Shown here piece by piece: positions 8,320 through 60,900 of a stretch of 61,153 nucleotides of DNA. Under the pieces are notes generated by a model. That model saw only the letters and a program-made list of their open reading frames with translations. It did no database searches and was not told the origin of the DNA. Source of the DNA: Nemertoderma westbladi (lineage: Eukaryota; Animalia; Xenacoelomorpha); contig JAUCBJ010001349.1 in assembly GCA_032718475.1 (NCBI GenBank), positions 1 to 61,153 of the forward strand. The letters are read 5' to 3'. Numbering within the stretch: the first letter of the stretch is position 1; every line of letters begins with the position of its first letter. A program made the translations under genes and the position numbers.

Positions 8320-13316
<4,997 letters not shown>

Positions 13317-13676: not shown

Positions 13677-14495
13677 ATTACAGTCGTTTTTTCAGCTGAT
13701 ATTATTAAATATTTACTGGTTTTTCAAGGTTTACAAAACTATGTGTTTCTTACATTTTTTTAAATATTTTTTAATTGTTAATTATTTAGAAACCTTCATT
13801 TAATATACATTCAGTACAATATTTTGGGTGTAATTTGAGTTTATTCCAATATTTTGTCAGTACACATTTTGTATTGTAAGGCTTTTTAGAGGAGGCGAAA
13901 TGTTTATTTAGATTATAGTTTTTATTATAAATAACTACCTAATGAGTTCAAATAAAATATTACACATGAAATCCAAATCCGAATATAATATTATGGATAT
14001 ATGTTTGATAAAATATTGGAGTATTTATGTAGAATTTTGTGCCAAATATTGTAAAGTTTGGGTGTATTACGCGCAACAACTTGCGCAACCACCACCAGAA
14101 AAGTATAGGCCTAACTATATTTTATAGTTGACTGTCTTTTTTGTTTTGTGTAGGAGTATTTGTCAAATTTAATGTAAGCCTATTATTATACAGTATACGT
14201 TAATTTATTTGCGGCCAAGTCTAAGCTGATGGTTCCACTATATAGTGCTTTCTGTTTTGTTGTGTAGAATATTTTAAATCCTAAATTTTCTTTTTGCAAT
14301 AAATTGCTTCGTATATTGAGAAATTATTTATTTTTAATGAGGGCCCTCGGATATAGTATGACAGATACTTGGCGTACATGATAGACTAAAATAGTAACAG
14401 ACCTCCATCAGACAGAGAGTCGTCCTCACGTTGATATGAGAGCGACGGCTGGGCGAGTAAAAAGAAATAGGTTGGATACATTGATTGGGATTATC

Positions 14496-40131: not shown

Positions 40132-42055
40132 TTACACCCATAGCATTCCGCACTTCAGGCACTGTACTTGAATGGGTTAAGACAAGGTTGAGGCGATGAT
40201 TGCAGCAGTGGATCGTGTCCGCCAATAATGGATTAGCTTCCTTTATAATCGTTGAACAACCTTTAAAACGTGCCATCATCGCCGATGCGCCATCATAACC
40301 TTGACCTCGACAAAGTTCCATGGACAGTCCAATTGCTTTGACTTTATCCATCAGCAAAGTTGAGAGTCCTTGACCTAATAGAAAATTATCTATTTATTTA
40401 TTTTCATATTATGTAAATTTTATATTAATTATTTATTTTATTTATTATTGAAATTCAATAATAAATAAATGAATAATACAAATTTAAATTTATATAATAA
40501 TATTATTAAGAAAAATAATTATTAAGAATAATAATTATTAAGAATAATAATTATTAAGAATAATAATTATTAAGAATAATAATTATTAAGAATAATAATT
40601 ATTAAGAATAATAATTATTAAGAATAATAATTATTAAGAATAATAATTATTGGATAAATTTAGATTTACTGTCATGGGATTCCATTAATTAATAAAAATA
40701 TCAAAATAACCCCCACCCCTCACCCTCTATCACTATGTCTACTACTAACCTTTAAACAACCACCCCCCCCCCCCCCCCCATTATGTTTACTACTAACCAT
40801 TAAATACCCCCCCCCCATCCTCTATTACTATGTCCAGACATCTACTTCTACTAATAACCATTAAACAACCACCCCCCCCCCCCATACTATTGTGGGATGT
40901 GGTGATTGGCAGGTTGACGCCTGTAGCATTATATAATTAATTAATTAATTGTGAATTATTTCGTGTTTTACAAACCTGATAAATCCAGAGCATGAGCGAA
41001 TCCAATGAATTCCTCATGGATAATCCCTTCATCATCCACATGACGAATGACAATTGTTGCCTGCTCCTTGGTGCTACTATCTGTGGTCTCATCCATACTT
41101 ATCGAGAAGAATTGGTTGCTTCACCATGGCTTTTCACTTGAGCTACATCTTTATCCAATATATCATCAGAAATAACGCTCAGGAGCTCGTTTTGAGTTGT
41201 TTTGCTTATATAGCTGGCATTTCCAGTTGAGCGATTAATCATTATACAGAGGTCCTTATCACCAGCATCCAATCTGAACCGTAGTAAATCCCTAAAAACA
41301 CCCTCACCTGCAACGTGGTTAGTTCCACAATCAACGAGTGGCCCATCATCGAGATGTCCCCTTAGGGGGAGCATGTTTCGGCCACAAAATATTACGGTTT
41401 TGATGATGGGCTCCAGAATTTTGCGGTTCTCTTCCAATTCCTTTCTCCTTTGCTCATCAAGCAAATTTGCAACGCTCTGAGATGGCTGTTCTGCGACTTG
41501 TTGGAACGATTTCATTCGAAGCATTGAATCTAAATGGTAGTTTAGGGTCTGGTGCTCACGAAAGATGTTTATTGCTTTCTTGAACTTACCAAGCGGTTTG
41601 GTGACCAGCGTTCCAAGAGCCTGCTTTCCCCTACCACCTTCCTTCTGACCAAAGAGAACACACGCGATACAAAATGCTCCACCTTTGGCCTCGCTATAAC
41701 GGATCCACGGAAATTGGCCGAACCAGGAGTACTGAAAACTCCGTCGTTGATTTCCTTCAAGGATGGCAGGGTACTTTCTCGTTTTCGGTGGTAACTGCTG
41801 GCGAAGTATGCGGTGACGAATGTTATCTGATATGGGGTGGTCCGTTATGCTGCCGATGTCGTCACAACCTATACATTCTCCGTGGTCCATTATCACGTCC
41901 CCACCTTCAGGGATAATGGATTCCATTGGAGTCTCCATTTCCAAAGCAAATGGTTCAATTGATTGTTCAGGATAGGAAACGGAACCAGAAAAGAAATCAG
42001 TAATTTTAATCTTCTTTACAGTCCGACGCTGATCATACATAATGCAATAAAACAA
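40128..42055 (-). pseudogene. hAT transposase (ZMYM1/THAP12-like; TTF zinc finger + DUF4371-like), truncated and frameshifted
   Basis: RSFQYSWF..FPW.RYS....AFCIAC, LPLRGH, YISKTTQNEL, (frameshift near 41130) MDETTDSSTKEQ.TIVIR, phase-1 intron 40375-40975, then CRGQGYDGASAM and IHCCNHRLNL. C-terminal half missing. Confidence 0.88.
40494..40651. repeat. 16-bp AT-rich tandem repeat (ataataattattaaga, ~10 copies) in the hAT intron
   Basis: Visible directly in the sequence. Confidence 0.9.
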
Positions 42056-42263
42056 AAGGTTAATACAAATAAATATGTGAATGGAAAATATACAATCTGA
42101 AAATGTGCTGGGGTGGCTGAGTGGGTAGAATTAAAGCGCTGCTGTTTGAATAAATGATTTTGAGACTTTTAACATGACATGTAATATTAATATTTTACAA
42201 AGAACGGATAGCCATGACCCAACTACGGTGGCTGAATGCGGCCAATTTTTTCCAGACAAAAAT

Positions 42264-42843
42264 TGTGACGGGATCAGATAGAGGATCCCGGTTTATCCGG
42301 TGGTTAGGTTTATTTACGCGTCCCGCCGTGTGAAAAGAGTTTGTTAGAGTTCCTGTTGTTAATCACTCGGTATGTATATAATATAAAATGGTATAAAGTA
42401 TAAGCACAGTTATAGCGAATGCAGTTAGTAATTGCAGTATACAGACAACATGAATGAATAAACGGCTGAACGGTAATAAAAGTTGCCGTCCTACCCTAAC
42501 TGAACTGGCTAGCTAATGAGTGAATGAATAACACGGTTACTGGTAATATATTGCACCGGTTGGCCGAATTACACTACTCAGCCGATGCCTTCCCCCCATT
42601 GGCTAATAACTCACTTGTCACCCTCATCTCCCTGGGAGTGTTCTCCCCTTGCTGCTGTCACTCTCTCCCTCCCGGAGGTGTAACCTCTGACCCCTGCTGT
42701 GTGTGTTCCCTTGGGGCCAATTGTCCCCGCTTTATTGGGGTGACACGAGGTTGATTGGCAATCAACCTCGTGTTCCCAATATTGCTTAAGGCGCTCTTTC
42801 CCACTTTATGGGGGTTGGTGTGGTGGAATTGAATACGCTCACA
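42264..42843 (-). mobile_element. Solo LTR (580 bp) inserted in the left TIR
   Basis: TGTGA...TCACA termini; 5-bp TSD aaaat at 42259-42263 and 42844-42848; the right TIR shows the empty site gacaaaaataatattt. Strand is inferred from a taaataaa near one end only. Confidence 0.85.
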
Positions 42844-42860
42844 AAAATAATATTTACTTA

Positions 42861-43117
42861 CCGCCGGTCACCCGCGGTCACCGCCGGTCACCCACGGTCA
42901 CCGCCGGTCACCCACGGTCACCGCCGGTCACCCACGGTCACCGCCGGTCACCCGCGGTCACCGCCGGTCACCCGCGGTCACCCCGGTCACCAGCGGTCAC
43001 CCCCAGTCACCCGCGGTCACCCCCGGTCACCCACAGTCACCGCCGGTCACTTGCGGTCACCCCCGGTCACTCGCGGTCACCGCCGGTCACTCGCGGTCAC
43101 CACCGGTCACCCACGGT
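42861..43117 (+). repeat. Left subterminal array of 10-bp units (ccgccggtca / cccgcggtca / cccacggtca), ~26 copies
   Basis: Near-strict 10-bp period; reverse complement of the 48322-48560 array. Confidence 0.95.
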
Positions 43118-43285
43118 GAGCGGTTGTAGGCTATAAAAGTACAGTACACCAGTAAGTTGTTTATAAGATTTTATTATTATTCCACGTGTATGCAAGATAC
43201 TTTCCGTTATATATTAAATTTATTACTTGCTTCTATTGTAATTTATAATTATAATTAATTAGATAACTAATTAAGATGGTGCATT

Positions 43286-44435
43286 ATGGATAATGAACAA
43301 GAACAAATGATTGAACGTTTATTCTGGTTGAATTATAACCATAAAGAAATTGCACAGTTTTTACATGGACAATCATCCAGAACAGTACGGAGAAGATTGC
43401 AAGAAATGGGTCTTTCAAAGGTTTTCGACCCTTTAAATTTCAACCACGTTGTTGATTCTATCGAGAAGGAATTTGCCAACAATGGAACGAATTCTGGATA
43501 TCGACAAATGCAATCTACTTTGATGCTTAAATATAAACTGTTCGCTCTGAGAGCACTTGTTGGTGGTGTAATGAAGGCATTAAATCCAAATGCTGTAGTA
43601 ATGCGCTTACATAACAACGTAGTCCGGAGAACTTATATATCAAAGGGCCCCAACTTTATACATCATATAGATGGGTTTGATAAACTAAAGCCCTTTGGTT
43701 TTGCGATTCACGGGGCAATCGATGGGTTTAGTAGAAAACTGTTATGGCTGCGCTGCGGAAAAAGCAATAATGACCCGTTTGTAGTTGCTCAATACTTCGT
43801 TGATGTTATCCTCGAGCTTGGTGGAGTACCAAAGACCATAAGGTCCGATAGAGGTACAGAAAACGTAAATGTAGAACTCTTAAAGCGTTACTTGAACTCA
43901 ATAAACAATGGGGATACACGATCTTCTTTTCTTTACGGGAAAAGCACTCGCAACCAAAGAATCAAAGCATTCTGGAGCAAAATTCCCATTTTAGGAATAT
44001 CAAGCTGGTTGACACACTTGCGTGAGTTGGAAGGCTCAGGTCTATTGGATACTTCGAACTATTTACAGATGGAGATAGTGCGCTTTACATACATGCCATT
44101 ACTCTCGCAAACCTTGTCCGATATACAGTGCAAATGGAATTCTCATAGATTGAGGAAGTGCAGCATCGTATCCCCAGGTGGCAAGCCAGATATTTTGTTT
44201 ACCTACGAGCCGAACTATCTATCTACAGCCGGTGCGTAACGAAGATTTGGAGTTACTCGAAGTGTTTGCATTTGATGACAAGCCATGCTTAGACAGCGTT
44301 CGAGATGTGTGTGAGGACTACTTGAGAGAAAACAACGTTGTAAAGAAGCCTCGCGATTGTGCTTACCTCACTGAATGCAAAAGCACATTCTTGTACTTAA
44401 AAAATTCAATTGTGCGTGATATTGAATTAGTTTGA
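43286..44435 (+). pseudogene. IS3/integrase-core DDE transposase (~381 aa when repaired)
   Basis: HTH-like N-terminus (SSRTVRRRLQEMGL), GYRQM, RRTYISKGPNFIHHIDGFDKLKPFGFAIHGAIDGFSRK, IRSDRGTEN, STRNQRI(K)AFW, WNSHRLR. The expected catalytic E is AAA (K) at 43964-43966, and a 4-bp CTAT duplication at ~44215-44222 shifts the frame. Confidence 0.9.
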
Positions 44436-44662
44436 TTTGAATTTATAATTGTGTTGAATATAAATCCGGATACAAAAGCAAGTAAATCATATGCATTTAT
44501 ATTCAAAACGTTAGGCCTATCCGTTTTTATAAAACTTTAAATTACGGGGGATATAAAGTCCAGGACAAGCAATGTTAATTGATAAATAATTAATTGATAA
44601 AAGTGATAAAACAATTTAAAAATAGATAATTGAATAAATAATATATAATAATAATTATTATT

Positions 44663-44792
44663 TATTCCATGGGAAAAAAAGTAGAACTTTTTTCATTATT
44701 CTCGAGGCATTTTATTTAACGAGCATCAGCGAGGTTAATAAAGGGTGAGAGAATATTGAAAAAAAATGTTCTACGTTTTTTCCCATGTAATA
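44663..44792. mobile_element. Small palindromic MITE between the two genes
   Basis: ttccatgggaaaaaaagtagaac ... gttctacgttttttcccatgtaa, inverted repeats of ~40 bp. Confidence 0.6.
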
Positions 44793-45319
44793 CGTAATTT
44801 TATTTACGTAATTTAATTTTAATTTTGCTGGGAGTAAATAGATTTCTGGTAAGAAATAGCTTTCCTGTAAATATAAATAAACATACTGTATTATATGCAG
44901 CACCTACGACGCAGGGAATATTGACGCATGACCCAACGACCACACTCGCAGCCGCAGGACCTAAAGACGCAGGACCTGTACGTAGTGTAATAACGTTTTA
45001 TATTAGTTTTAGGTTAGCCTAGTGTAATTGTGTATTTGTAACCAAGTAACATAAAGGACCCCATTGCCATTGGAAATATTATGTTATGTTATGTTGGACA
45101 ATACCAATATTAATATCATCATATTATGTAATAATTATTAATAATAAGTTTTCTATTTGTTTACTATAAGTTTTATTTTCGGTACGAATGATTTGAAGTG
45201 GCTAGAATAAGTAAGTAAATAATAAAGTAAGTAAATAAGTAAGTAAAGTAAGTATATGTTAAAAAAATATATAAATTTTGATAATAATTTAACAAACTAA
45301 TTGGCAACTATCAAACTAC

Positions 45320-45437
45320 TTAGGAAACTGGTAATTCCGGTAAAATTCCGGCCGGAATTGACCCCATTCCGACCGGAACCGGAATCGGGCAAAAACCGCC
45401 GGAATTCCGGCCGGAACGGAATTCCGGGACATCCCTA
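45320..45437. mobile_element. hAT-type MITE fragment (attccgg repeats, CATCCCTA end)
   Basis: Clustered attccgg/ccggaat motifs ending in acatcccta. Confidence 0.5.
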
Positions 45438-45887
45438 ATTAAAACTATTGTTTGAGTCAGAATTATTAATTTCACTTTCAAAGTAAAGTCCCAGGTGAGT
45501 ACTATGATACTGAAGTATTACATCAGATTTACCCCCCCCCCCCCCCCCCCCCCATGGAGTTTGTGATCATTTGATTGAAAATGTATAGAGCAGGAAATAA
45601 GTTGTATTTTGATGTACTTTATACAGCGAGAGAACTTAACATGGCGGAAGATAATTAAGATATTTCCAATAACAATTTTGAACGATGAGAAATAAAATAT
45701 TAACACAAATAAACACTACTAACACTATTTAGAAGACTATTATAAACAATAATGGTTTGCCTGACTAATAATTCACTGACGGCATTGCAATTCAGTTCAA
45801 TTAATGACTAATTCAATTAAACGTTAAGTTCAATAATAATAATATACAATAATGAGTAGCTCGAGATATATAAATCGTATTGCAGGT

Positions 45888-47958
45888 TTAGGGAAGGCCG
45901 AATCCGACAGCGCGAAGGATATCTTCAGAAATGCGACTGCAAAACGTTGCAGTGCTACCAACTAAATAGCGATCGTTGATAGGAAATTTGATACTGAGGG
46001 CACACGTATCAGCTGATAAACGACGGTCGGGTTGATTAGATCGGTAAAATTCAAGCTTGCCCTTGAAGTTGGAGAATCTTGACCCTGAACCGAACTGAAG
46101 AATGTCCCCTAACCGCAATACCTTCTCTTCCACAATATCATTTTCTAGATTCAAAATGTCGCATCTCATATTTCCCTTAGAAACTTTAGTCAGAAATTGG
46201 CCAAATTTAAAAACAATTTCGTGTTGTTTTTCACGTTCCTTTGAACGGGCATCTCCTTCATAGTGTGGAACAAAACAACCTTTGACATCTTCAATTGTCA
46301 CATCTTGAAAGATCAGTTCATTCAAAGCATTAGCCGGTCGTTCTTTCATTATTGACAGCACTCCAAACGATTTCAAACCCTCCCGAAACATAGAAACTTC
46401 TTCACAAACACTACTTACAACAATGTGCTTAGAAAGAATTTCCACAACATAATCTTTATCTTTAAATTCGAATGAGGCTGATGTCAGTCCCATATCGAAG
46501 CGTTCTGGGAAGTTACGTATTGCTGTGCGGAAAGAAACTTCATCGGTCGATGTTTCAATAAGCCCCACCTTGATCTTAACATCTTGCTCCTCATTGGGGA
46601 TTTCGCTTATAGAGACTTTGTGTGGTATAGATAGCACAGCCTTTGCAACAGATTGACACAAAAAATGCGGTCCAGGGAGGCCGTTTAAAAGTGCTAATGC
46701 CAGTCATCATGCCCAATTGACGAAAACGTCCCAAGGCCTCAATATTGTGCCGGAACGTGAAATATGGATAGGAACCTCGAAATAACAAACCTCCTTGATC
46801 CTTAAAAAACATTGTAAATAACTCGCGTGTCAAACCACCAGTGTCAAGTCCCTCTTCCTCAAGGAACTTAGCCATCACCCTAGGGCTAGCAATTTCAACA
46901 TCGATTTCATCTAGAATGTCAAAAACGCTTTCTACAACCCTACTCCGAGGAACTTCAAAACAAGTGTAATAAGAACTTTGTCGTGTGAGCTTGGAATAAG
47001 CATTGTCTAAAAGAACACCCAAGGAATTATCACTAGAATCGCCAATAGTGTTATCATCATCACTGCCAATCGATATGTAATTATCGACGTTAATAACATC
47101 CACATGTTCAGAGGCCAGAGGGTCCAAATTTTCAGCAGGGATTATTGTAACCGATGGTGGCTCGATGGATGCGCTAAAAAAATCATCCACATTGAAATCT
47201 CCCGGCTCGTTATTGTTAGAATAATTTTCAAATACGTCAATGACATTAGCTGATGTAGAAGGGGAACCAACAACAACTTGATTGCGCTCCAAGATTTCAA
47301 CCATTTCACTATCATTCGTAGGTGAGTATCCGACTTGAGGGTAAATGCCTTCCATTGAACTAAGTTTTGCATGGAAACATATTTTAGGTGTTCCGACGAT
47401 GCATTTGCTTTGTATATATTCCTTCAATGTCTTGAACGCTTCCGAAAGTTCGCCACTGGATGACCACAAAGAATAACTATAGCTATTTACATCAGTTGGT
47501 AATGCATAATTATCTAACGCCATACACTTGTTATCAACGAAAATCTTTGCTCTTAGTATTTCGACGACAGAAGATAATGAGTCATTTAAAGGTAGCCTTA
47601 ATTTAAGGGCATTTGATTCACCAAGCGGTTTTTTCACTTGGAAATAACCCGCTCCACTGTCTACTTTAACACGAACTTCTACCACATTCCACGAGTTTTT
47701 TATCTTGCGAGTGGGATTAGGGGTTTGACTTAATTGGCGACGATCGGGCATTCTGGTGGATCCCGTAGCTCGGATAGGTGTAGTGGAAACCTTTTCGATA
47801 GAATGGTTCGATCGTTCATCCAAACAACCTTCGAACTCTATTGTTTCTTTATTAATATCGAAAATCTTGTTATTAATATCGTGGCGCAAATTGCTAAGTA
47901 AAGTTCTTCTTAGTTCACTAATTGGTTTGCAACCAGAAGGCCTATTAAACTCTGCCAT
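45888..47958 (-). pseudogene. HECT-domain E3 ubiquitin ligase (G2E3-like), transposon cargo, ~689 aa with one frameshift
   Basis: KFLEEEGLDTGGLTRELFTMF (HECT N-lobe start), FREGLKSFGVL, DILQFGSGS, LSADTCALSIKFP (catalytic TC) and terminal GFGLP. Removing one C of the CC at 46700-46701 joins the 455-aa and 257-aa ORFs as GMMTALALLNGLPGPHFLCQSV. No introns. Confidence 0.88.
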
Positions 47959-47985
47959 CTCCTCACAACGCTGAACGAACTGAAA

Positions 47986-48097
47986 GGGGTATAACTTTTC
48001 GCCATATCCTGATATCCGTATGTCAGTATGTGTACATGTAGGTGATATCCATATGTATGGAATTAATGCGGATATGGCGAAAAGTTATACCTAACCC
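47986..48097. mobile_element. 112-bp MITE just upstream of the HECT ATG
   Basis: 22-bp inverted repeat ggtataacttttcgccatatcc / ggatatggcgaaaagttatacc; direct repeat aactgaaa at 47978-47985 and 48098-48105. Confidence 0.7.
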
Positions 48098-48321
48098 AAC
48101 TGAAAAGTACCGGTACTGTAATCGTAATCATAAATCATGTAGGGCCTACATGTACTACTGTCTGACAGCAGGAATACAGGACTGACTGACTGAAGGAGTA
48201 ATCAAGTCATTGCCTACACCAACCCACTTGTGTTGAAATGCAACACAGTACTGCAATACCCTGCTAGCAGTAGGCCTACATAGTACATACAATTTCAAAT
48301 TTCCCTCCTGATTAAAATTGT

Positions 48322-48560
48322 ACCGCGGGTGACCGGGGGTGACCGCGGGTGACCGGCGGTGACCGTGGGTGACCGGCGGTGACCGCGGGTGACCATCGGT
48401 GACCGCGGGTGACCGCGGGTGACCGGCGGTGACCGCGGGTGACCGGCGGTGACCGCGGGTGACCACGGGTGACCGGCGGTGACCGCGGGTGACCGCGGGT
48501 GACCGGCGGTGACCGCGGGTGACCGCGGGTGACCAGCGGTGACCGCGGGTGACCAACGGT
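48322..48560 (-). repeat. Right subterminal array of 10-bp units (gaccgcgggt / gaccggcggt), ~24 copies
   Basis: Mirror image of 42861-43117. Confidence 0.95.
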
Positions 48561-49301
48561 AAGTAAATATTATTTTTGTCTGTGGAAAAAATTGGCCGCA
48601 TTCAGCCACCGTAGTTAGGGGTGTCCCTTCTTATCTAAAATTACACTTTATTACGGGCAAGGTGTTATATATTATAATACACCTTGTTGTATGCCTAAGT
48701 AATGGGACTGTGTGGCAGACTTAAAAATGAAAGTTTTTATTATACATTACCGGTTGTATTCTCTGTCAGTTACTTTACTGCATTGCAGTACCGGTAGGCC
48801 TATTGGTACCATTGTAGTTTGTTTATTTAAGTAGAACTACCAGTTGGTTAAAACGCCATTGATACAAACCAATAACAAACAACCTAACAGATAACTGAAT
48901 ACATAATATTATTAAGCTAATTGCTGGTTTATTAGTTTATTTTTATGTTACATTTACCGGAACCAAACCGCACCTAAAACTATCCGACTACAGGGACTAT
49001 GTTGTAATGGTCTATATTCTGATACCCCTATTAGACTAATTTAAATTTCGTTCCCATGGTACCCAATATTGGCAGGAGGCAGTGAAGGTAATGTTCAGTT
49101 AATCCGCATCATATCGGTAAGTAAATTATTAATTAAATATAAATTAAAGAATAATAATTAATGTAATTTAATTCATTTAAGTGTTATAGGCATGATTATT
49201 ACTTGATTATGGTACTGGTACAGTACTGAATTAGACCATAGTGCCTACAGCTTAACTTAATTTAACGTGTTTTAATAAAATAGGCTCTATTAATTAATTA
49301 C

Positions 49302-50148
49302 CTGTAATAATATGCCGGTCATCTTTACAGAAATCGACAGCATCGATGCTGCTCCCAGTTCCTTCAATCCGGTTGATAACCTCCCCAGTTACAGAATTTA
49401 GAATATAAATCAACCCGTTCACCCCAACAGCAGCGATTCTGGATCCGTTCGGACTCAATACGATCCACAGGACCCCAGGAGTTGCTTCCTGTCTCCACAA
49501 GGTCTCCCCTGCACCAACAACGAAGCGATGGATCCCTCCTCTCCCATCTACCGACACCACTGACTCCCCATCCGGACCCCAACCCAGACTCCAGACCCCC
49601 CACTGTGCCCCCGGTATTGATACAACATCTCCCGGGTTCCGGTCACCCAAACTTTTACTGTTCCATCCTCCGAACAGCTGGCCAACCGGGACCCGTTCGA
49701 GTCGAACCGAATACAGTTAACCGGCCCAGAATGCCCCACCCAGTTCGTTACCTTATATTTCCTCCCAGTTATTGATATAATAGAAATCCCCCCGTCGGAC
49801 CCACAAGTTGCCATGACGTCCCGGTTGGAGGGATTTATATCTATTCCCTCCCTCCATCTACCCACCCCCCACCAACCACTAACTCCTCCCCGGTACCTCC
49901 ACTACGACCCTCCAACCGGTCGCTTCCCGCTCCCAGACAGTCACCGACCCCCCCACCCAGGTTCCCGAGGCAACGCGGTTCCCGTCCGTAGAAACCGCGA
50001 CTCTCCAGTAATCGTTAGAACCTCCGGATCCCGGTAGATCTTCCTTTTTGTAGAGAGTTGTTGAGTTTATGATACAGGGGAGGTTGTTAGACACAAAGAC
50101 AACCTCCTCGGTACCCGGGATCATTTTGAGTTCCTCGATCGGCGCCAT
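49302..50148 (-). pseudogene. WD40-repeat protein exon with two frameshifts (pseudogene or homopolymer errors)
   Basis: Three consecutive ORFs give WD repeats: VAVSTDGNRVASG..SVTVWE; GHSGPVNCIRFDSNGSRLASCSEDGTVKVW; GHSG/VWSLGWGPDGESVVSV; LSPNGSRIAAVG; IDAVDFCKDDRHIITG. Donor GTAATT at 49301. Confidence 0.8.
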
Positions 50149-50355
50149 TGTTAGGGGGATTATTGAATCTAAAAGATAAAATAAAGTAAATTGCCGCTAA
50201 ATTGCTAAAGTACTAATAAGTATTACAGCGCTAGTAATTGTTATTAGATAGTCAGCGTAGCCAGTAATTATTTACTAGCTGTTTTTATTTATTCGGTTTG
50301 TATAAACGATCAATATAATATTTAATTTATTTTTAATGTTCCAGTAAAACAAAGT

Positions 50356-50481
50356 GTTCTAGAACCTTAATTGATAACGAACTTGTTCTAGGAGATTAAA
50401 AAGTAGCGACAACTAGTTAGTTTAAATAATTTATTTTTTTTAAATAAAATGTTCTAGAACAAAATAAATATGTTCTAGAAC
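50356..50481. promoter_or_regulatory. Cluster of GTTCTAGAAC palindromes (heat-shock-element-like) upstream of the WD40 ORF
   Basis: Copies at 50356, 50385 (imperfect), 50451, 50472; further copies at 52364 and 52449-52462. Confidence 0.35.
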
Positions 50482-50623
50482 ATCAATATTGAACATCCAG
50501 TATTTGTGCTACATACCGTAGTTAGTATAAGGTTTGGTATTTAATAAATATACGGAAGAAAACCTTTTCAAACTAAAATTTATTTAGTTTATTTTGCAGG
50601 AATAACAAACCGACATAAAAAGG

Positions 50624-52225
50624 TTCCGCTGCGCTACAGTCGGCTCCGCGGACCTCCGCCGCGCTACAGTCGGCTCCGCGGACCTCCGCCGCGCTACAGT
50701 CGGCTCCGCGGACCTCCGCCGCGCTACAGTCGGCTCCGCGGACCTCCGCCGCGCTACAGTCGGCTCCGCGGACCTCCGCCGCGCTACAGTCGGCTCCGCG
50801 GACCTCCGCCGCGCTACAGTCGGCTCCGCGGACCTCCGCCGCGCTACAGTCGGCTCCGCGGACCTCCGCCGCACTACAGTCGGCTCCGCAGACCTCCGCC
50901 GCGCTACAGTCGGCTCCGCGGACCTCTGCCGCGCTACAGTCGGCTCCGCGGACCTCCGCCGCGCTACAGTCGGCTCCGCGGACCTCCGCTACGCTACAGT
51001 CGGCTCCGCGGACCTCCGCCGCGCTACAGTCGGCTCCGCGGACCTCCGCCGCGCTACAGTCGGCTCCGCGGACCTCCGCCGCGCTACAGTCGGCTCCGCG
51101 GACCTCCGCCGCGTTACAGTCGGCTCCGCGGACCTCCGCCGCGCTACAGTCGGCTCCGCGGACCTCCGCCGCGCTACAGTCGGCTCCGCGGACCTCCGCC
51201 GCGCTACAGTCGGCTCCGCGGACCTCCGCCACGCTACAGTCGGCTCCGCGGACCTCCGCTACGCTACAGTCGGCTCCGCGGACCTCCGCCGCACTACAGT
51301 CGGCTCCGCGGACCTCCGCCGCGCTACAGTCGGCTCCGCGGACCTCCGCCGCGCTACAGTCGGCTCCGCGGACCTCCGCCGCGCTACAGTCGGCTCCGCG
51401 GACCTCCGCCGCGCTACAGTCGGCTCCGCGGACCTCCGCCGCGCTACAGTCGGCTCCGCGGACCTCCGCCGCGCTACAGTCGGCTCCGCGGACCTCCGCT
51501 GCGCTACAGTCGGCTCCGCGGACCTCCGCCGCGCTACAGTCGGCTCCGCGGACCTCCGCCGCGCTACAGTCGGCTCCGCGGACCTCCGCCGCGCTACAGT
51601 CGGCTCCGCGGACCTCCGCCGCGCTACAGTCGGCTCCGCGGACCTCCGCCGCGCTACAGTCGGCTCCGCGGACCTCCGCCGCGCTACAGTCGGCTCCGCG
51701 GACCTCCGCCGCGCTACAGTCGGCTCCGCGGACCTCCGCCGCGCTACAGTCGGCTCCGCGGACCTCCGCCGCGCTACAGTCGGCTCCGCGGACCTCCGCC
51801 GCGCTACAGTCGGCTCCGCGGACCTCCGCTGCGCTACAGTCGGCTCCGCGGACCTCCGCCGCGCTACAGTCGGCTCCGCGGACCTCCGCCGCGCTACAGT
51901 CGGCTCCGCGGACCTCCGCCGCGCTACAGTCGGCTCCGCGGACCTCCGCCGCGCTACAGTCGGCTCCGCGGACCTCCGCCGCGCTACAGTCGGCTCCGCG
52001 GACCTCCGCCGCGCTACAGTCGGCTCCGCGGACCTCCGCCGCGCTACAGTCGGCTCCGCGGACCTCCGCCGCGCTACAGTCGGCTCCGCGGACCTCCGCC
52101 GCGCTACAGTCGGCTCCGCGGACCTCCGCCGCGCTACAGTCGGCTCCGCGGACCTCCGCCGCGCTACAGTCGGCTCCGCGGACCTCCGCTACGCTACAGT
52201 CGGCTCCGCGGACCTCCGCCGCGCT
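50624..52225. repeat. 30-bp GC-rich minisatellite, ~53 copies
   Basis: Unit gcgctacagtcggctccgcggacctccgcc (23/30 GC, SacII site in the unit), very homogeneous. Confidence 0.97.
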
Positions 52226-52771
52226 CCACTCCAGCCCTCTCTCTGGCGGGATTGTATTTATCGGGCGGGATTCCCCGCACCTCCCGACTTTATGTGGGAT
52301 TGTTTTACTTGTTAGTTTAAGGTTTATTGTTTGTGGTCGACTGGCTTGGGTTACATTGATGGTTTCTAGAATGTCAGATTGTCTATTTACCGGTTCTACT
52401 TCGCCCTGTCGACACCCCCTGTCATTTTTTAACCATTAATTTGTTGGTGAATGTTCTAGAACATTAGTAGGTATTTTTTCAAGGTGGGTAGATAGTATAT
52501 ATATTATGAAAATACAAAATATATTTTATTCTTAAATTATGACTTTTTTGCTCGAATATACCCCAAAATAGGGAGAAAAAGTTTCTCTTTTTTTCCCTGG
52601 GGAAAAAAGTAAAATAAAATATTTTGTTTGAATTTCTTAAATTTTAATACAATTTGATTGAAAGAGAATCGAAGTAGAAAAGGTTTGCAAGTAATTTGAG
52701 CCAAAATCCATTCAAACACTCAAAAGTTATTGCAACTTTAGTGTCTGAAAGACGAACTCCATAACGGAACT

Positions 52772-54404
52772 CAATTCAATATTCAATATTCAATATAAAA
52801 TATTTTATTTTATCCTCAAACGAACAAGTAATACATATTAGATCAACATTCGCACTCCGGCACCATAGATGAGGATGATATTTCTTGGTGAATGAGAATA
52901 TGATGATGGATGTTTTGTGACCAGGTGAGAGTAGCGGTGAATGGAAAATTGTTTAAGGAATGGATGGTATCAAAATAGCGAAGCTAGTAACCTGATACCA
53001 ACCAGAGATGAGATTAATTATATTTTTACATTGAAATATGGTACTTGATTGATGGTGAGGGGGGGGGGGGGGATCAATAAGGTAAGTGGGTGGGATGGGG
53101 GTGTAAAGGGGAAATGGAGGGCGGGAGTAGGAGGGCGGGGGGGGGGGGGGGTGCAATGCAAAATAAAATTGTAAATTAAACGAAAAGTGATGGTTCCATA
53201 TATATGTTCAGTAGGCATGATGGCCTATTTGCCGTGCGTGACATATCACCCACAAAGCAGCATTCAAGCGACGGAACTGGGTGTATAAAAGTTGCTATTT
53301 CTTAACATAAAGGCTTACTGCATAGATACGAGAAAATTATGTTTTAAGTGTTTGGAGAAAGACGTTTTCGACATTTTCTGTTTAATATAATTTGGGATGG
53401 TGTTCCATACGGTGGGGCCTAGAAAAGATGAGTGTAGATGAAAGACGGAAAAGTGGTGTGTAATAGTTACTGTAAGTAACAGAACGAGTGTTGTAGTTAT
53501 GTACAGTAGAGGTTTTCGTAAAGAGAGAGCCAATGGTTGACGACTTAGAGATAGTGTTATTGTTTATATCATACATAATAAGTGAAATCTGATGCTTAAA
53601 TAGGAGATGTAAGGGGAGAATGCCAAGGGATTTGTATAGCGGGCTAGAGGAGGACCGAGAGTGAATAAAAGTAATACAACGTAGCAGTTTATTAATTTTT
53701 GTTCGTAGCGGTTTCAGAGTTGAAGTGTATGTACCACCCCACAAGACTATGCCGTAATGTAAATAAGGGTGTACAAGGGTTAAGTAAAGTTGACGTAGAA
53801 TTCGGAGTGGAAAAATGTTACGTAATTTATAAAATATTCCAGAAGTTTTCGATATTTTTTTGAGAATGTATTGTGTGTGGGCTTTCCATGATAGTTTGCT
53901 GTCCACTAGCACTCCTAGAAATTTAGTAAAGTTAGTCTGGCGAATGGTTTGCGACGAGATGTGTAGGTTTTGTAAAGTGGAATTGATGGTGTTAGAAAAT
54001 ATAGTGTACTCCGTTTTTGAGAGATTTAGTGATAGACAATTACAAGACAGCCATTCTGCGATTTTCGATAGTTCTTTGTTCGTGTTGCTGATGAGAGTAT
54101 TAGAGTCAGAGTTAGAGTTCAATAGGGTTGTGTCATCAGCAAATAGCGTTGTTATTAGAGAGGTAGCGTTAGGAAGGTCATTTATGTACAAGAGAAACAA
54201 TAGCGGTGATAGGACCGAACCCTGCGGGACTCCACAGGTTAGTGGTTCTATAGATGATACGTAACTGCCAATACTAACAGTTTGGGAACGGTTAGATAAA
54301 AAACTAGATATTAGTTGGTTAGGTAAGCCACGAATCCCATATGCATTTAATTTATTTAATAGAATTTTATGGTTCAAGGTATCAAAAGCTTTTTGAAGAT
54401 CTAT
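52772..54404 (-). mobile_element. CR1-group LINE (CR1/Crack-like): 3' half of ORF2, 3'UTR and (tattgaa)n tail
   Basis: IDLQKAFDTLNH..YGIRG, GVPQGSVLSP, FADD, KFLGV, HNYNTR; frameshift into GPTVWNTIP (ends 53315); tail at 52772-52795; cut at 54404 by the next LINE. Confidence 0.88.
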
Positions 54405-55055
54405 ATTATTATACTCGCGCACATAAGCGCAAACCAGGCTAGCTGGCATTTATTAGTAAAATTGTGACGATTATACAATTATGCCGATTACACTATTATA
54501 AAATCATAGTAAATAGTAAACGAACAGGATCAACATCACTACTAAATTATTAAATAAAATATAAGTCAATAGTTGGCTAAAAATAAAGCTTAAAAATGGC
54601 ACCAGTGATTATACAATCAATGTTGGGTAGGGTTAGTATAGCATAGGGACGACACGTTATAATTAACATTAATCAAATATATATCGTTATATATAAGTAT
54701 ATATACGGTTCGAATTAACTCCAATCAAGAGTATGCAATAAAGAAACAAACTTAAAATCCGTAAAATTGTAGTATTCTATTATGTTTAGTTTTAAAAGTT
54801 ACTCCGTGCAGATCGTAGCAATTCTTTACAAAATTAGCACAGATTATGTCGTCAAGCGAGCTATTGCCAGTTTGAAGTCCTGTCAAAAGTGCACGTTTGT
54901 CATATTCACATGTTAGTATAGACCACATGGAAGGGATTTGGTGAGTTTCCTTTGCTCGTCTGTAGGTGCTCATAAGGCCCCTGTATAACGTGCGGGATAT
55001 CGCATTATCCAAAGCAATGTACTGGAAGCTTGTTTGTAAGGTGAATATAGGGCGT

Positions 55056-57902
55056 CTAAGTATTTGCAATAATGGCCATGGTGCTGAGAGGCAAAATATT
55101 CAGTAGTTCGTATAATGTGTCGTTGTTTATATATACTCCAACATGCAGAAGTCGGCGTAGAGCCTGTCTATATGCTGAATCGATACGAGATATGTCATTC
55201 TTGCTCAGGTTACCAATCGTATACTTCAGCTTGTATGTCAAGCTTGGGATTACAAGTGACTTCCAGAGATATGATAATGTTTCGGTATCTAACCATTGCG
55301 ATGTCCACCCTTTCTGTTGAAAAATTCCTCCCATTTTCCATATATGCTGAGTGCACTCTGCGGCAGCGTGTGCGCTAGTTTTGTTGGAAGAAAGAGTGTA
55401 GCCCAGGAACTCGATTGTCTGACTTTCCGGTATTAGCTGCCCATTAATATTGAGGAAACACGGTATGTAAGTGTTGTTGTTAGCTTCGCTGTACATCCAG
55501 TGACATTTAGACGGCTCGAACATTAGTTGTAACTTATCGAGCCCCATGTTCAGTATATTTGACATGAGTTCTATTTCCTGTATTGTAGTGGCTAAAAGAA
55601 AAACATCATCAGCATACATTATGCAGCCGAACCAGATATCGTTGATCATGCACCCCAGTCCGGATTCAGTTAGCGACTGCATGACGCTGATGGTGTAAAG
55701 ATTAAATAAGCATGGTGACAGTAATGATCCTTGCATGATCCCTCTAGGCATATTTATGCCAACCACATCTATCAGATTTCCAAACTTGAGGTACACTATG
55801 GCGATGCTGTAGTAATGAACCAGTAGACGGCAAATGAATGGGTTTATAATTCCTGATAACTTCTCGAAGAGAACTGCGTGGTCAACTTCGTCAAAAGCGG
55901 ATTTGATATCAAGTTGGCACATATACAGACCTGATCCTAGTTCACTAAAGTGTTGTATACATTCCAGTATCAAACCGATGGCAGCCTCGCATCCCACATG
56001 TTCTTTATATGCTAACTGATAGTCGTTTCTTGGAAGGATATTCTCAAGGAAGCCTTTGTATATTATACGCTCGAGTACCTTTGCTAATAGGCATATGCTG
56101 GCAATCGGTCTATAAGAGTTAGTTCTCATGGGATCCTTCCTCTTCCCTTTGAATAGACTTGTTATGATAGTTGCTCCAAAAACATCGGGCACCATGCCAA
56201 TACGTATACTTGCATTGTACATATTTGCTAACAGGTGACACATAGTCTCGGGGTTGGCGGATAAAAGGTGCTCCACTGTTATAGAATTGAGGTCTGGCGA
56301 CTTCCCTACCGATAACGATAGAATAGATTTCCTTATAGTTTCTTCAGATATGGTAGGCATAGTAGTATTCTTGCATTGTCTGTCCAAATTATCGGTGATA
56401 TTGGTAGTACTAGTAACGTTTCTTGTGATTCTGTCCCTATATGACTGACGTATTTGTTCCTGAATCTGAGTTGGTGGTGTACTTGAAGTTCCCTTGTTTG
56501 AAAATTTACGCCAGAAACCCTTTGGGTTGCACTTCAGCTTGTGAGTTACTTCACCGACCGATCTTGCAACGTGTGTCTTCATAAGTGCATTTTTTAGTTG
56601 TCGTACTCCGCGTTTGGACTGTTTGAAGGCGATCCCCACCTCATCGTTAGGATCTTTCCCATTATTGACCCATAGGTTGTACAGGCTGCGGGTGGTTCGG
56701 CATCGCTCCGAAAGAGTAGCTGAGCGTATTCTATAATTTTTGGTTGTCCTTTTCTTTTTTATTACATTAATAGATTCAAGTGCTGATTTGTGTAACGCAG
56801 AGTTAATGTTGTTGGCAAGAGTATTGAGGTCGTCTATGGTGTCGATAGCGAGTAATGCCATCCCCTCAAGGTGATTATCTAAGGTTCGATAGTACTGGTC
56901 TTTCTGTTTTTTGGATGCGCTTCTCCAGTTAAATCGTATAGGCGTCTGTTTTGTAGCAGTTTGTTCCACCAACCCTTCCTTTGCAACGTCACAGTTGATT
57001 GAAATCACGATTGGTAGATGATCAGAAAAATTTTCTGCTTCGTCATGTTCTATGATGTATCCCCCTATGACTTTAAATGGACCATTGATAGGCATCACAA
57101 TGTGGTCGATATAACTCCAATGACCACCCCCTATATAATTATATGCTGGTCCTGCCACGTTGTCAAGTGTGTCTATAGCTGTAAGATTGTGGTTGAGTAG
57201 GAAGTTGTTCAGAATGAGACCGCGGTCTGTTGCATTGGGTCTGTGAAATCGTGGTCCTTGTTCAGACCCTAAGTCCGCGTTAGCATCCATCATAATGATA
57301 GGGATTGCCACTGGGTACATGGTGATTAAAGCAGTAAGGCGACCAAGATGCTCATTATAACTTTGAATGTTTTTGTTAGAGTCTGGAGCATAGCCTGAAA
57401 GTAGAAGAACGCGAACATTGCCAGTGTCACCAATTATTCCAACAATGTCGTCCCCAGAGGCGACTTTGGCCCAGTTACATACTTTACCTCTGCGGAATGC
57501 CAAGGCTACCCCTCCAGCGCCTCTAACCCTATTAGGGTTATTCATTAAATCGCTGGTGGAGTATACGAGCTCGAAGTTTTCATTGAATGATTTCTTAGCT
57601 ACATGATCAAGCTCTATAGCATCCATCCAGTGCTCCTGAATTCCAATGACATCGCATACTTCAAGCAGTTTGTCTATCTGATCGATGCTACTCGAGTACC
57701 CGTGGCAGTTAAAGGATCCTAATGTAAGTCTTACTTTAGAAGATTTATAATCCGTGTTGCTAGTACCAGTGTTCTTATTCGCTGCAGAGTCCACCTTTGG
57801 AGATGGAATGTCCTTTGGAGATGTCTTGGCTTGATGTTCTGTGAGGGTGGGGCCAGTGCAGTTTTCTGTATATTTGGTTATTTTGGTATTTGCGACTGGC
57901 AT
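55056..57902 (-). CDS. LINE ORF2: AP endonuclease + reverse transcriptase (948 aa; may continue by frameshift to 54752)
   Basis: APE motifs SFNCHG, IQEHW, MDANA, SYIDH, SDHLP; RT motifs YRPI, LDIKSAFD, GIMQGSLLSP, YADD, FLG. Confidence 0.93.
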   Translation of the reverse strand: MPVANTKITKYTENCTGPTLTEHQAKTSPKDIPSPKVDSAANKNTGTSNTDYKSSKVRLTLGSFNCHGYSSSIDQIDKLLEVCDVIGIQEHWMDAIELDHVAKKSFNENFELVYSTSDLMNNPNRVRGAGGVALAFRRGKVCNWAKVASGDDIVGIIGDTGNVRVLLLSGYAPDSNKNIQSYNEHLGRLTALITMYPVAIPIIMMDANADLGSEQGPRFHRPNATDRGLILNNFLLNHNLTAIDTLDNVAGPAYNYIGGGHWSYIDHIVMPINGPFKVIGGYIIEHDEAENFSDHLPIVISINCDVAKEGLVEQTATKQTPIRFNWRSASKKQKDQYYRTLDNHLEGMALLAIDTIDDLNTLANNINSALHKSALESINVIKKKRTTKNYRIRSATLSERCRTTRSLYNLWVNNGKDPNDEVGIAFKQSKRGVRQLKNALMKTHVARSVGEVTHKLKCNPKGFWRKFSNKGTSSTPPTQIQEQIRQSYRDRITRNVTSTTNITDNLDRQCKNTTMPTISEETIRKSILSLSVGKSPDLNSITVEHLLSANPETMCHLLANMYNASIRIGMVPDVFGATIITSLFKGKRKDPMRTNSYRPIASICLLAKVLERIIYKGFLENILPRNDYQLAYKEHVGCEAAIGLILECIQHFSELGSGLYMCQLDIKSAFDEVDHAVLFEKLSGIINPFICRLLVHYYSIAIVYLKFGNLIDVVGINMPRGIMQGSLLSPCLFNLYTISVMQSLTESGLGCMINDIWFGCIMYADDVFLLATTIQEIELMSNILNMGLDKLQLMFEPSKCHWMYSEANNNTYIPCFLNINGQLIPESQTIEFLGYTLSSNKTSAHAAAECTQHIWKMGGIFQQKGWTSQWLDTETLSYLWKSLVIPSLTYKLKYTIGNLSKNDISRIDSAYRQALRRLLHVGVYINNDTLYELLNILPLSTMAIIANT

Positions 57903-57918
57903 ATCCTTGAATCCATTG

Positions 57919-60900
57919 TTAAAAATGAGACCTGTTAAGTGGATTCCTCGTCAGATAGTAATCCTGTGCGATTTGGTAGTGTTTCATGTAATCTCGCTTG
58001 TGTTGTCTTGTGTCTGCTTTGGAGTTTTCCTGCCTGTTAAGATCATGCGTGATTGCACTGTAGCATCTCAAGTCACTTGGTGCTCTGTAGTTATGTTTTC
58101 TTGATTTCTCATGAAAACTACGGGAGTGATCATCTATAGAAGATTCTTTGGAGGCATCTGGGGAGCTATGCTGTTCCTTATGGTTTAGTGCAGAACTGTT
58201 GTCAGATTGCTTTCTTGAACGTCGTCCTTGCCAGTCATTAGTTGCATGTCTATCTGGGTTTGTGACCCATTCTTTACATACAATCCCAGAAGGCCAGAAT
58301 GCATTGTGCATAAGAGTATCTTTAAGGTTAGCGTCAGTAGTAAGGCGAACGCTTTTCCCATCTCCATGTAGGCGAGTTGTGATTCGATGCACAGCAATTT
58401 TCCTTTCGATAAGGAAGTTTACTACATCATCCTCGGTGTTGTTCTTATTAATGCCAGAAATAAAGAGTTGTACTCTGAGGCGTGATTCGGCGCACATCAA
58501 TGGAACTCCACATCTTTCAGAATTGATTAAGTTGTCCTCTCCCTTGCAATTATTTCCCGAGTTCACTGCAATTCTTTTGGTAATCCTCTTTGGTTGATGT
58601 TGAACGACATGCTGTTGCTGCTTATCTTTACGGACAGTAGTGTGTCTGCTGGTAGTGTCTGACGTTGTGTTATCGGTATCGAAATTACTTAGTAGGTGAT
58701 AAGGGTTGGGGCCAATGATTGTACCGCCCATGTCCCTTTGCCGTGGCGGTTGTTTTGCTACATGTTTGTTCCTCGGCATACTGAATGAAGTACTATAATC
58801 CTTCGATTGCTGGCTACTGCGCTCATCCTGGAATTTTACTTCATGTAAAGTTGATTCGGGTGAAGAAAAAGTTCCTGGTAAGTCGTCATCATCATTAATT
58901 GAGTCTATTATCAGCCAGTCGGATTCCGTATCATTACTTGGGGTCAGGGTGCATTGCGTGCCTATGGCAGAGTTGCCCTGTTTCCTGGTTGAAATGATGT
59001 TCCGAAACTTTTCCTCCAGTACAATCCGGGAGTTACGCTCATGGTTTAAATCTTGTTCTATTGTCTTATTTTGCTCTTTTAGTTTGTCGTTATTGGTTTC
59101 GAGTAGGCAGATGCGTGATTGTAGGGATGCGATAGCAGTTATGAAGTCATTTCTCAGAAGCCGTATGTTGTCCTGTTCATTTTTGTCCAGTTTGATATTA
59201 TCTGTTGTATACATCCTCTTGCGGCATTGGTTTGAAAGGACCTTTTCTCGAATAGCTAAGAGCATCTCATATACATCAGTGGCTAACTCCCTATGAGAGT
59301 TCCGTGGATAGAGCTGTAGTGACAGCTGCTGTAGAGGTGACATAAATGGTTTTAAGTCCTCGAATAACTTATTCCTATGCTTTGATAAGTCCCCATTTGC
59401 AGTATTAGCTATTAGATTGATTGCTTTCTTTCGGGGGTGCTGTATAAGTCCAAATAAATTGATGCATTGTGAGGATTTCTGTTCCTGTATGTTATGGTGC
59501 TTGGTGGTGATGGTACCTGCTAATGTCGGGTCCGTGATGGTTGGTGCATTTAAGTCTGGTAAGTGAACAGGATCCAGGGTTTCTGGATCTCGTAGTTTAT
59601 GGTCCACGAGGCACTGTAGTAACCATTGTCGCAGGTTAGCATTTTGTATCTCACCTGATAGACTATTACCGGTGGATACCATAGTCGCATATAGGCATGC
59701 AAATACGCCGCAATCTTTGCTTAGAGGTTTTTGAAGGGGGTAATTGTTGATGTGGGAGACGGCAGTCCATGAACTTTTTGCCCCTCCAGAAACATATTCG
59801 ATTGAGTTTAGCAGTTTACAGATTCTCCGAGTCACAGTTGATGGTCGAGTCATCGCATTGATGCTGCATAAAGTATATACACTATGGTCGCTGAGATTAG
59901 CGATATGCAGAACGAAGTGGTCATTGAAGCAGTCAGGAAAGAGGCACAGTGATGTAGATCTTATGTTACAGGTAGATGTGATATATTTCAAGGCACTTGC
60001 ATAGTCGAACCTTTCTTGATGCAACTTGCTACAAAGACTTGAGTCGATACAACCTATTCTATCATCTCCCATTGAGTTATTTAAAATAGATAAAAAAGAA
60101 TCCACAATGACAGTTGAAAGTTTGCATCCTGGTTGTAGGTAGTCCCAGTCTGGGTCTGATGGCTTAATAATCACTTTGCTATTTATTACTGGTGTTTTGA
60201 GGATGGCATCCCTAATTCGCACATCATCATGCTCTAAGTCTGTGTCAGGATAAAATTTGTTTACTTCTCCTTGGGAATATTTGTGTTCTCCCATGTACAC
60301 CACATCCTTGTTACGGTTAATGTTTGACATTACCATATGATTAGAGTTTTCCGTCGATGTAATGATGGTGGTTGGATGGTCTGGAGTTATTCCACCCTTC
60401 TTATGTCTAATTGGTTTGAAGAAATCAGAAATTTTACTTCTTTTTGCTTTAGACATTAGTGCTTGTGAGTCTGTGACAGTTGAGGGTAGATTGAGGTCTG
60501 TCACCTGAAGCAATGCATTGTCAGAAATGTCTATCAACTCTGGAGTGGACATGCCGGATGGGCCGCTAGTTGGTTGGAGATGCCCCCCATATGATTGGTC
60601 TGTCCTGCAAGCCCCTGATTGAGTGACTGCTCGATCAGTACATGGCATGTGGTCCAAAAGCTTGGAATTCGAAACAGAAATTGGAATATCCCTGACTGTA
60701 ACGTCCCTGGGCCTCCATATGCCATCACTATGAAGATCTTCGACCATGACACCAGTGAAGTGGGCGTGGTGGTTTGTTGAGGGATGCTCTGTGATGTTCA
60801 ATTGGGGCAATGGTGGTGAGAGTTCCTGGTGTGAAGGTGTGGGGTATGTCAGGGGTGTCGGGTTTGTCTGGGGTAATTGTGTGCTGGTATGTGATGTTTG

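Follow-up and report, generated by a model that had tools for sequence, protein, structure and literature searches.

Introduction

Harbinger and Zisupton are two-gene DNA transposons, the second proteins of which contain Myb/SANT and SUMO-protease domains. IS3EU elements, which have been joined with GingerRoot, have TA..TA ends and usually 6-bp target-site duplications (TSDs), according to PMC10045372, and their structure and function have been called largely unexplored (PMC11934779). Rust-fungus IS3EU elements have TAYGG..CCRTA ends and carry an alpha-kinase gene opposite to the transposase gene, with a TET/JBP gene between the two (PMC12730594). Among host ubiquitin ligases, the G2E3 subfamily was scored as absent from the cnidarian ancestor and as having arisen after the chordate/echinoderm split (PMC2837046, Table 1). 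Here we analyze a 61,153-nucleotide contig of Nemertoderma westbladi (JAUCBJ010001349.1, assembly GCA_032718475.1; this whole stretch is called the window). Positions 42224–48613 of the window are a 6.39-kb IS3EU/GingerRoot-type DNA transposon, a decayed copy with TACGGTGGC ends, in which a transposase gene faces a second gene that likely encodes a HECT ubiquitin ligase, as judged from its relatives.

Results

The element and its two genes

The element starts with TACGGTGGC at 42224, and the reverse complement of TACGGTGGC finishes at 48613. The outermost 31 nt of its terminal inverted repeats (TIRs) are identical, which would occur by chance with a probability of about 1e-9 in 61 kb. With a 580-bp insert excluded, the left TIR (42224–43117, +) and the right TIR (48322–48613, −) align with 257 of 292 nt identical (88%), the bulk of each arm being a 10-bp tandem array (42860–43117 on the left). 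The TACGG..CCGTA termini fit the TA..TA (TAYGG..CCRTA) rule for TIR-bearing IS3EU/GingerRoot elements, bearing out the TIR-bounded unit proposed in a first-pass annotation of the window. Left-flank contigs from two sequencing runs (X1 and X2, see below) cease matching at 42223, one continuing with 80 other letters, and this provides an independent mark of the left end. No 6-bp TSD was found at this copy, the left flank reading CCCAAC and the right flank GTTAGG. These hexamers (42218–42223 and 48614–48619) are nearly reverse complements of each other (5/6), an unexplained relation that could be due to chance, a palindromic target or later rearrangement. Element ends reaching over the hexamers were considered and rejected, as relatives terminate at TACGG and contigs leave the window at 42223. 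No second copy of the TIR is present within the 61-kb window, no inverted repeat was found to join the right flank to the open reading frame (ORF) left of the element, and an Rfam search of 42000–49000 gave no match. No RNA data set was listed as containing the sequence.

The transposase gene occupies 43286–44435 (+). Its frame from 43286 matches Pfam rva_4 (PF24764) with E 2.8e-35; read through a frameshift near 44216 with X, it yields 382 aa that align with the family profile up to residue 370, and the tail beats 200 of 200 shuffles. The earlier designation as an IS3EU/integrase-type DDE transposase is thereby confirmed. Its catalytic positions read D129, D188 and K227 (codon at 43964), the last lying where 118 of 120 homologues have NQRIE and none has NQRIK, so the window copy has no complete DDE triad in an open frame. 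Homologues number 380, the best 120 being 36–48% identical, and named ones come from corals, oyster, acorn worm, a hydrozoan and a wasp. On visual comparison, the motifs GPNF.HIDG.DKLKPFGFAIHGAIDGFSR, R.D.GTEN and YGKST.NQRI correspond to those of IS3EU-4_CGi and IS3EU-1_CGi (PMC10045372 supplement); the transposase trees used below contain unnamed relatives only and no named Repbase members.

The second gene, at 45888–47958 (−), encodes about 689 aa with X at a single break, a frameshift near 46703. Its divergent HECT domain covers residues 334–689 approximately (45888–46959, −), with the cysteine codon at 46002–46004 and a GFGLP end. The first-pass annotation had described two intronless, convergent genes and a 689-aa HECT protein with a TC motif and a GFG end. 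Convergence holds, with 1453 bases from stop to stop, as do the protein length, TC and GFGLP; the alignments are also in keeping with coding regions free of introns, and a direct Pfam match was not obtained. The HECT assignment is based instead on relatives and on the conserved cysteine. The C-terminal piece is 41% identical over 99% to P0001, a 679-aa protein of Paramuricea clavata and the closest named relative, annotated as 'G2/M phase-specific E3 ubiquitin ligase' (G2E3), which itself reaches 21.1 bits against Pfam HECT, below the cut-off of 23.9. An ORF of the metagenome locus L077, 40% identical to the window HECT, passes the cut-off of Pfam HECT (PF00632) with 30.1 bits. Against a HECT profile of distant relatives built without the window, P0001 and L077, the X-read window protein scored E 4.3e-7. 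A profile of 23 such sequences, window piece included, finds 74 PDB sequences (best E 3.8e-23), of which the 60 shown are all HECT ligases, with HUWE1, Rsp5, E6AP and NEDD4 structures among the matches, and aligns ahTC with the catalytic AHTC of a HUWE1 structure. All 22 rows covering the column of the catalytic C-lobe cysteine retain this residue. An AlphaFold model of P0001 from a 4-row alignment had a pLDDT of 30.8 and was not used. The previously suggested check with PF00632 gave a match above the cut-off in relatives and none with the window pieces: a naive criterion of direct matching would fail the claim, but the relatives' matches let the HECT assignment hold.

Recurrence of the gene pair

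Scanning metagenome contigs revealed at least 556 stretches with a related transposase, of which the best 80 were kept as loci (L numbers), with 60 kb of upstream and 182 kb of downstream sequence examined around them. The HECT profile applied to each locus omitted that locus's own rows, near-twins remaining. A convergent HECT match was found in 30 of the 80 loci, always downstream and on the opposite strand. By available downstream length, it was present in 25/35 loci with at least 2 kb, 18/22 with at least 3 kb and 13/15 with at least 4 kb; upstream of the transposase there was none in 80 loci, 17 of which had at least 1 kb on that side. Clustering the transposases left HECT in 24 of 63 clusters at 90% identity and 16 of 41 at 70%. 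Among 52 hand-chosen downstream ORFs, 22 matched Pfam HECT, 16 above the curated cut-off. The 33 loci of at least 4 kb include two complete TIR elements with the TACGGTGGC end, L076 (5.1 kb, with the 6-bp TSD AAAAAG) and L077 (6.6 kb, no TSD), and Paramuricea clavata has three near-identical 679-aa copies on different contigs, forming one 90% cluster.

Between close relatives, HECT dN/dS was 0.19 and 0.15 (L005/L006) and 0.07 (L029/L026, 53 codons), compared with 0.23 for the front part of the second gene; the transposase gave 0.14. Of the eight second-gene comparisons, four were too saturated to yield a ratio. Such codon comparisons show purifying selection on the HECT gene of the relatives. 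Together with its recurrence and the two TIR-bounded examples, this supports the earlier proposal that HECT is a standing second gene of the lineage and not a one-off capture. Taken jointly, the identity of the element and the standing gene pair can be held with high confidence. The picture of a mobile ubiquitination module may apply to the relatives, in which the pair recurs; the window copy is not mobile on its own.

In viral contigs, none of 64 pattern matches was a relative. Prokaryotic genome contigs yielded nine loci (L081–L089), all in bacterial or archaeal metagenome-assembled genomes and one of them with a convergent HECT; the IS3EU-type transposases in these contigs are likely contamination from animal hosts. 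In L053 and L078, an inverted partial duplicate of the transposase gene lies downstream, inside the HECT region. An ORF at L051:8493–9341 (−) has a weak match to a major capsid protein (E 0.017), perhaps from a Polinton-like element adjoining the IS3EU copy.

Apparent enzyme exchange behind a shared front domain

The HECT tree has two deep clades, supported at 100/100 under two models and only about 18% alike. Type A, with the GFG end, comprises the window, P0001, L077, L010, L046, L051 and L002; in type B the tail is W-x-D/N-I-V-like. The six type A carriers do not group on the transposase tree but are spread over it, and their monophyly is rejected (p-AU 2e-45; the grouping for this approximately unbiased, AU, test was taken from the HECT tree, and a quick transposase tree had been inspected beforehand). 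Pairs of loci with transposases 80%, 79% and 70% identical carry HECTs only 28%, 21% and 18% identical. Constraining the HECT tree to unite the first two of these pairs was rejected (five short rows omitted). The discordant pairs are L014/L029, L027/L074 and L005/L010. Likewise, the nearest HECT to that of the window, L077 (41%), accompanies one of its less similar transposases (36%). Some of these discordances could be imitated by chimeric metagenome contigs. The tree tests and pair identities led us to reject strict co-descent of the two genes, leaving a weak overall correlation (Mantel rho 0.36, p 0.019, 21 rows). The suggested comparison of trees and substitution rates returned purifying selection without strict co-descent.

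In three loci (L068, L069 and L073) a conventional Ser/Thr/Tyr protein kinase, retaining its catalytic motifs, takes the place of HECT. At L069:2632–4908 (−), a single 759-aa frame joins the kinase to an N-terminal ubiquitin-like domain. A common front domain opens the second gene in seven relatives, of which L010 continues with HECT type A, L005, L006, L017, L029 and L074 with type B, and L069 with the kinase. It is in frame with the HECT start in L017 and with the kinase in L069, and in the remaining five relatives the link between front domain and enzyme is presumably spliced. The domain has no sequence match in Pfam or PDB; its AlphaFold model (pLDDT 91.6) predicts a ubiquitin-like beta-grasp. 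Fold comparison returned a list of ubiquitin-like folds, with a best Z of 9.0 (rmsd 2.4, 80 aligned residues) and three chains at Z of at least 8, and Foldseek agreed without passing E 0.001. The closest folds include Polycomb RAWUL/ULD, tied with many other ubiquitin-like folds. Two front-domain types of the relatives show a weak mutual link (P 0.002, probability 14%). Following the front domain, Pfam finds UBX in L005, L017 and, weakly, L011, and the same region is alignable in five more loci. The slot is standing, and its content, HECT type A, HECT type B or kinase, is apparently exchanged between elements. The standing pair of the first-pass annotation is thus kept as a slot and given up as fixed content. 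What this analysis adds is a modular second gene with an apparently exchanged enzyme part behind a similar front module.

Does the window protein share this front domain? G2E3 proteins have N-terminal PHD/RING-like fingers, for which the N-terminal 455-aa frame of the window had no Pfam match. When the front region was searched for homologues, all 10 matches fell on the HECT start, and an Atlas search with the front 330 aa returned only eukaryotic clusters, at 0.89–0.90. Residues 90–199 (47362–47691, −), a segment picked by eye, resemble the relatives' front domains with z 3.2–3.4 by shuffling and outscore 498–500 out of 500 shuffles as well as all 400 unrelated segments compared. This weak similarity suggests that the window protein may have the ubiquitin-like domain of its relatives there.

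Decay of the window copy and traces of other copies

The window copy is dead and cannot move on its own: each gene contains a frameshift, K stands in place of the catalytic E, and the left TIR is split. The splitting insert, 42264–42843, is 580 bp long, has TG..CA ends and is flanked by an AAAAT duplication; most plausibly it is the solo LTR (long terminal repeat) of a later-inserted retrotransposon, foreign to the element's own make-up. A contig from run X4 starts matching exactly at 42264, preceded by 413 other letters, and the summed contig depth over the insert is hundreds of times that of the flank, so it belongs to a high-copy family in Nemertoderma westbladi. Between the genes, contig depth and inverted repeats reveal a spacer (44472–45464) with several short repeats of high copy number, including one with 31-bp inverted arms (44663–44792) and one palindromic (near 45340–45420); these are probably later insertions. 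Given the missing TSD and the incomplete DDE triad and frame, we classify the copy as a decayed element of the lineage and not as an intact autonomous insertion.

To look at other copies, contigs of four Nemertoderma westbladi DNA runs (X1–X4; three samples, three studies) were compared with 40500–50400 at 85% likeness. Copy number was not read from contig depth, as X1 and X2, though from one sample, exceed the flank about 2-fold and about 4.5-fold. In all four runs, contigs read G at 43964, restoring the catalytic E. Contigs of X2 and X3 that span the HECT break contain one gap and are shorter by one base; an X3 contig over the transposase break contains four gaps and is shorter by four. These lengths fit open frames in other copies or alleles, as judged from the number of gaps and not from their positions. 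Runs X2 and X3, from two studies, also have a joint that links 43400 to 46781, with 36 letters on its short side. It is compatible with a second copy that carries both genes and has an internal deletion, although repeats can mimic such joints at 85%. Another joint, from 43338 to 48591, occurs in X1 and X2 contigs (one sample; 21 letters on the short side); a short non-autonomous derivative with the left part and only the last right-end bases is a possible source.

Sequence around the element

Directly left of the element, a 343-codon frame at 41099–42130 (−) has no Pfam or PDB match; from its motifs, we take it to resemble the N-terminal half of a hAT-type transposase. Just to the right, at 49294–50196 (−), broken WD40-repeat coding pieces lie in high-depth repeated DNA and are perhaps cargo of another mobile element. 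Further away, 12510–13313 (+) encodes a homeodomain C-terminal exon (WFKNRRAK), presumably Otx-like. LINE elements are found at 55059–61152, 53385–54449 and 14494–15522 (all −); they comprise a frame for endonuclease and reverse transcriptase, with a 1077-codon frame ahead of it that does not match Pfam, and two further reverse transcriptase remnants. Long tandem arrays at 50535–52436 (30-bp unit, 50.5–52.4 kb) and 19614–22480 are open in several frames.

Discussion

HECT ligases accept ubiquitin from an E2 as a thioester on their cysteine and pass it to a substrate lysine, and UBX domains are adaptors of p97. In working copies, the HECT part would take ubiquitin from a host E2 onto the conserved cysteine, while the front module would bind the element's own transposase. 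The ubiquitin tag could then clear the transposase from DNA after integration or limit its level, and the UBX of many relatives might summon the host p97/VCP unfoldase. A gene that moves with the element and serves it would be retained by selection, and elements could exchange the enzyme part, HECT type A, type B or kinase, behind a similar front module. We put forward tentatively, as possible rather than probable, that the second gene encodes such a self-addressed ligase, steered by its front part to its own transposase and tagging the transpososome. The statement as a whole, that of a decayed IS3EU-type element with a likely HECT ligase directed at its own transposase in working copies, falls only a little short of an even chance.

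The proposed steering draws on docking of the L005 transposase with residues 1–198 of the L005 second protein, which scored 0.47 compared with 0.00 for the best of three controls, with contacts agreeing to at least 44% and a partner pLDDT of at least 65. Of the solved pairs, 51 of 78 attained the mark, as did 2 of 108 mismatched ones (39/65 and 2/126 for eukaryotes). At scores of 0.60 or less there were 5 of the 78 solved pairs and all of the mismatches that passed (4/180), which makes the L005 docking weak support.

Several observations weigh against a self-addressed HECT ligase. A docking score in the range of L005 is more often wrong than right unless the interaction is likely beforehand, and it concerns a relative, not the window proteins. 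The window HECT pieces, with the domain split by the frameshift, did not match Pfam at E 0.1, nor did the C-terminal piece give a meaningful match in the PDB. With a profile from 20 distant locus ORFs, none of 1026 window ORFs matched and only the X-read protein scored. A search of 1.84 billion representatives gave no homologue of the front 330 aa at E 0.001, Pfam found no UBX there, and residues 90–199 were neither found by the front-domain HMMs nor significantly linked by hhalign (P 0.14 and 0.49). Of the 35 loci with at least 2 kb downstream, seven have neither HECT nor kinase. Finally, frequent HECT exchange and replacement by kinases fit a host-directed arms race equally well.

This last point leads to the strongest rival, in which an active ligase would act as an anti-silencing weapon aimed at the element's histones or at host factors for piRNA, chromatin or DNA damage, with enzyme exchange reflecting an arms race. 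The repeated change of HECT type on the transposase tree (AU p 2e-45; 18–28% compared with 70–80% identity), the kinases in the same slot and the presence of Polycomb RAWUL/ULD among the closest, though tied, front-domain folds are in keeping with such a conflict, and rust IS3EU elements bring, besides their alpha-kinase, a TET/JBP gene that has been proposed to act against methylation (PMC12730594). Set against this are the docking, albeit weak, of a relative's front module on its own transposase and the purifying, not positive, selection between close pairs; we consider an anti-silencing role possible but doubtful. The second protein could also be a structural partner of the transposase, as in other two-gene DNA transposons, its HECT serving as a binding scaffold with little ligase activity. 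Although the strong divergence of the HECT (window pieces without a Pfam match, P0001 at 21.1 of 23.9 bits) and its variable C-terminal tails would be in keeping with a scaffold, retention of the catalytic cysteine in every row that covers it, across both deep clades, and of catalytic motifs in the kinase alternative makes this improbable. A host G2E3-like gene captured once, or lying by chance between the TIRs as a neutral passenger, has a very slight chance and is already largely refuted: the G2E3 annotation of P0001 and the passive host gene fragments carried by 22 of 77 Selaginella GingerRoot elements (PMC6839031) are outweighed by the fixed position and strand in 30 of the 80 best loci, dN/dS of 0.07–0.19, whole domains in place of fragments, a multi-copy relative in an octocoral while Table 1 of PMC2837046 gives the cnidarian ancestor no G2E3, and an N-terminal frame with no PHD or RING match.

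Extending the self-addressed ligase to the whole group, one may imagine that the standard second gene of animal IS3EU elements combines a ubiquitin-like address domain, often with UBX, that docks the own transposase with an exchangeable writer. The self-ubiquitinated transpososome would be dismantled by p97, much as ClpX acts for phage Mu, and the HECT of vertebrate G2E3 might be a domesticated piece of such a gene. We regard this wider proposal as unlikely in its entirety. Two open questions are how the cut-and-paste transposases of eukaryotes are taken off the DNA once integration is complete and by what means transposons counter host silencing; a transposon with its own ligase and natural kinase-swapped variants makes both testable in one small two-gene system. 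Furthermore, many multi-copy 'G2E3-like' gene models of invertebrates probably belong to transposons, a point to consider where an expansion of E3-ligase families is claimed. As the window copy is dead, its significance is that of a pointer to the family.

A full-text literature search retrieved no paper joining HECT with IS3EU or GingerRoot; Repbase entries, the Kojima 2020 review and the GingerRoot supplements lay outside that search and may note HECT. The word 'HECT' was not found in the main text of PMC10045372, PMC12730594, PMC6839031, PMC11934779, PMC4455052 or PMC9587614, nor in the supplement of PMC12730594.

Compared with described IS3EU/GingerRoot elements, the window element has the same TA..TA termini, long TIRs and integrase-like DDE transposase without HHCC; it differs in that this copy has neither a 6-bp TSD nor the catalytic E, and the main texts of PMC10045372 and PMC6839031 mention neither HECT nor ubiquitin. 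With host G2E3 (PMC2837046), the second gene shares a HECT with a C-lobe cysteine and a GFG end, and its nearest relative bears the G2E3 name in databases. It differs in lying inside TIRs, in the lack of a PHD/RING match at its front, and in having multi-copy relatives in cnidarians, where G2E3 was scored absent in the same report. KolobokP also has a regular second gene downstream on the complementary strand, but its product is a His-Me nuclease and not a ubiquitin ligase with an exchangeable enzyme (PMC9587614). The rust elements share TAYGG..CCRTA ends and a second enzyme gene opposite to the transposase (PMC12730594); theirs is an alpha-kinase accompanied by TET/JBP, whereas here it is HECT or, in three relatives, a Ser/Thr/Tyr kinase.

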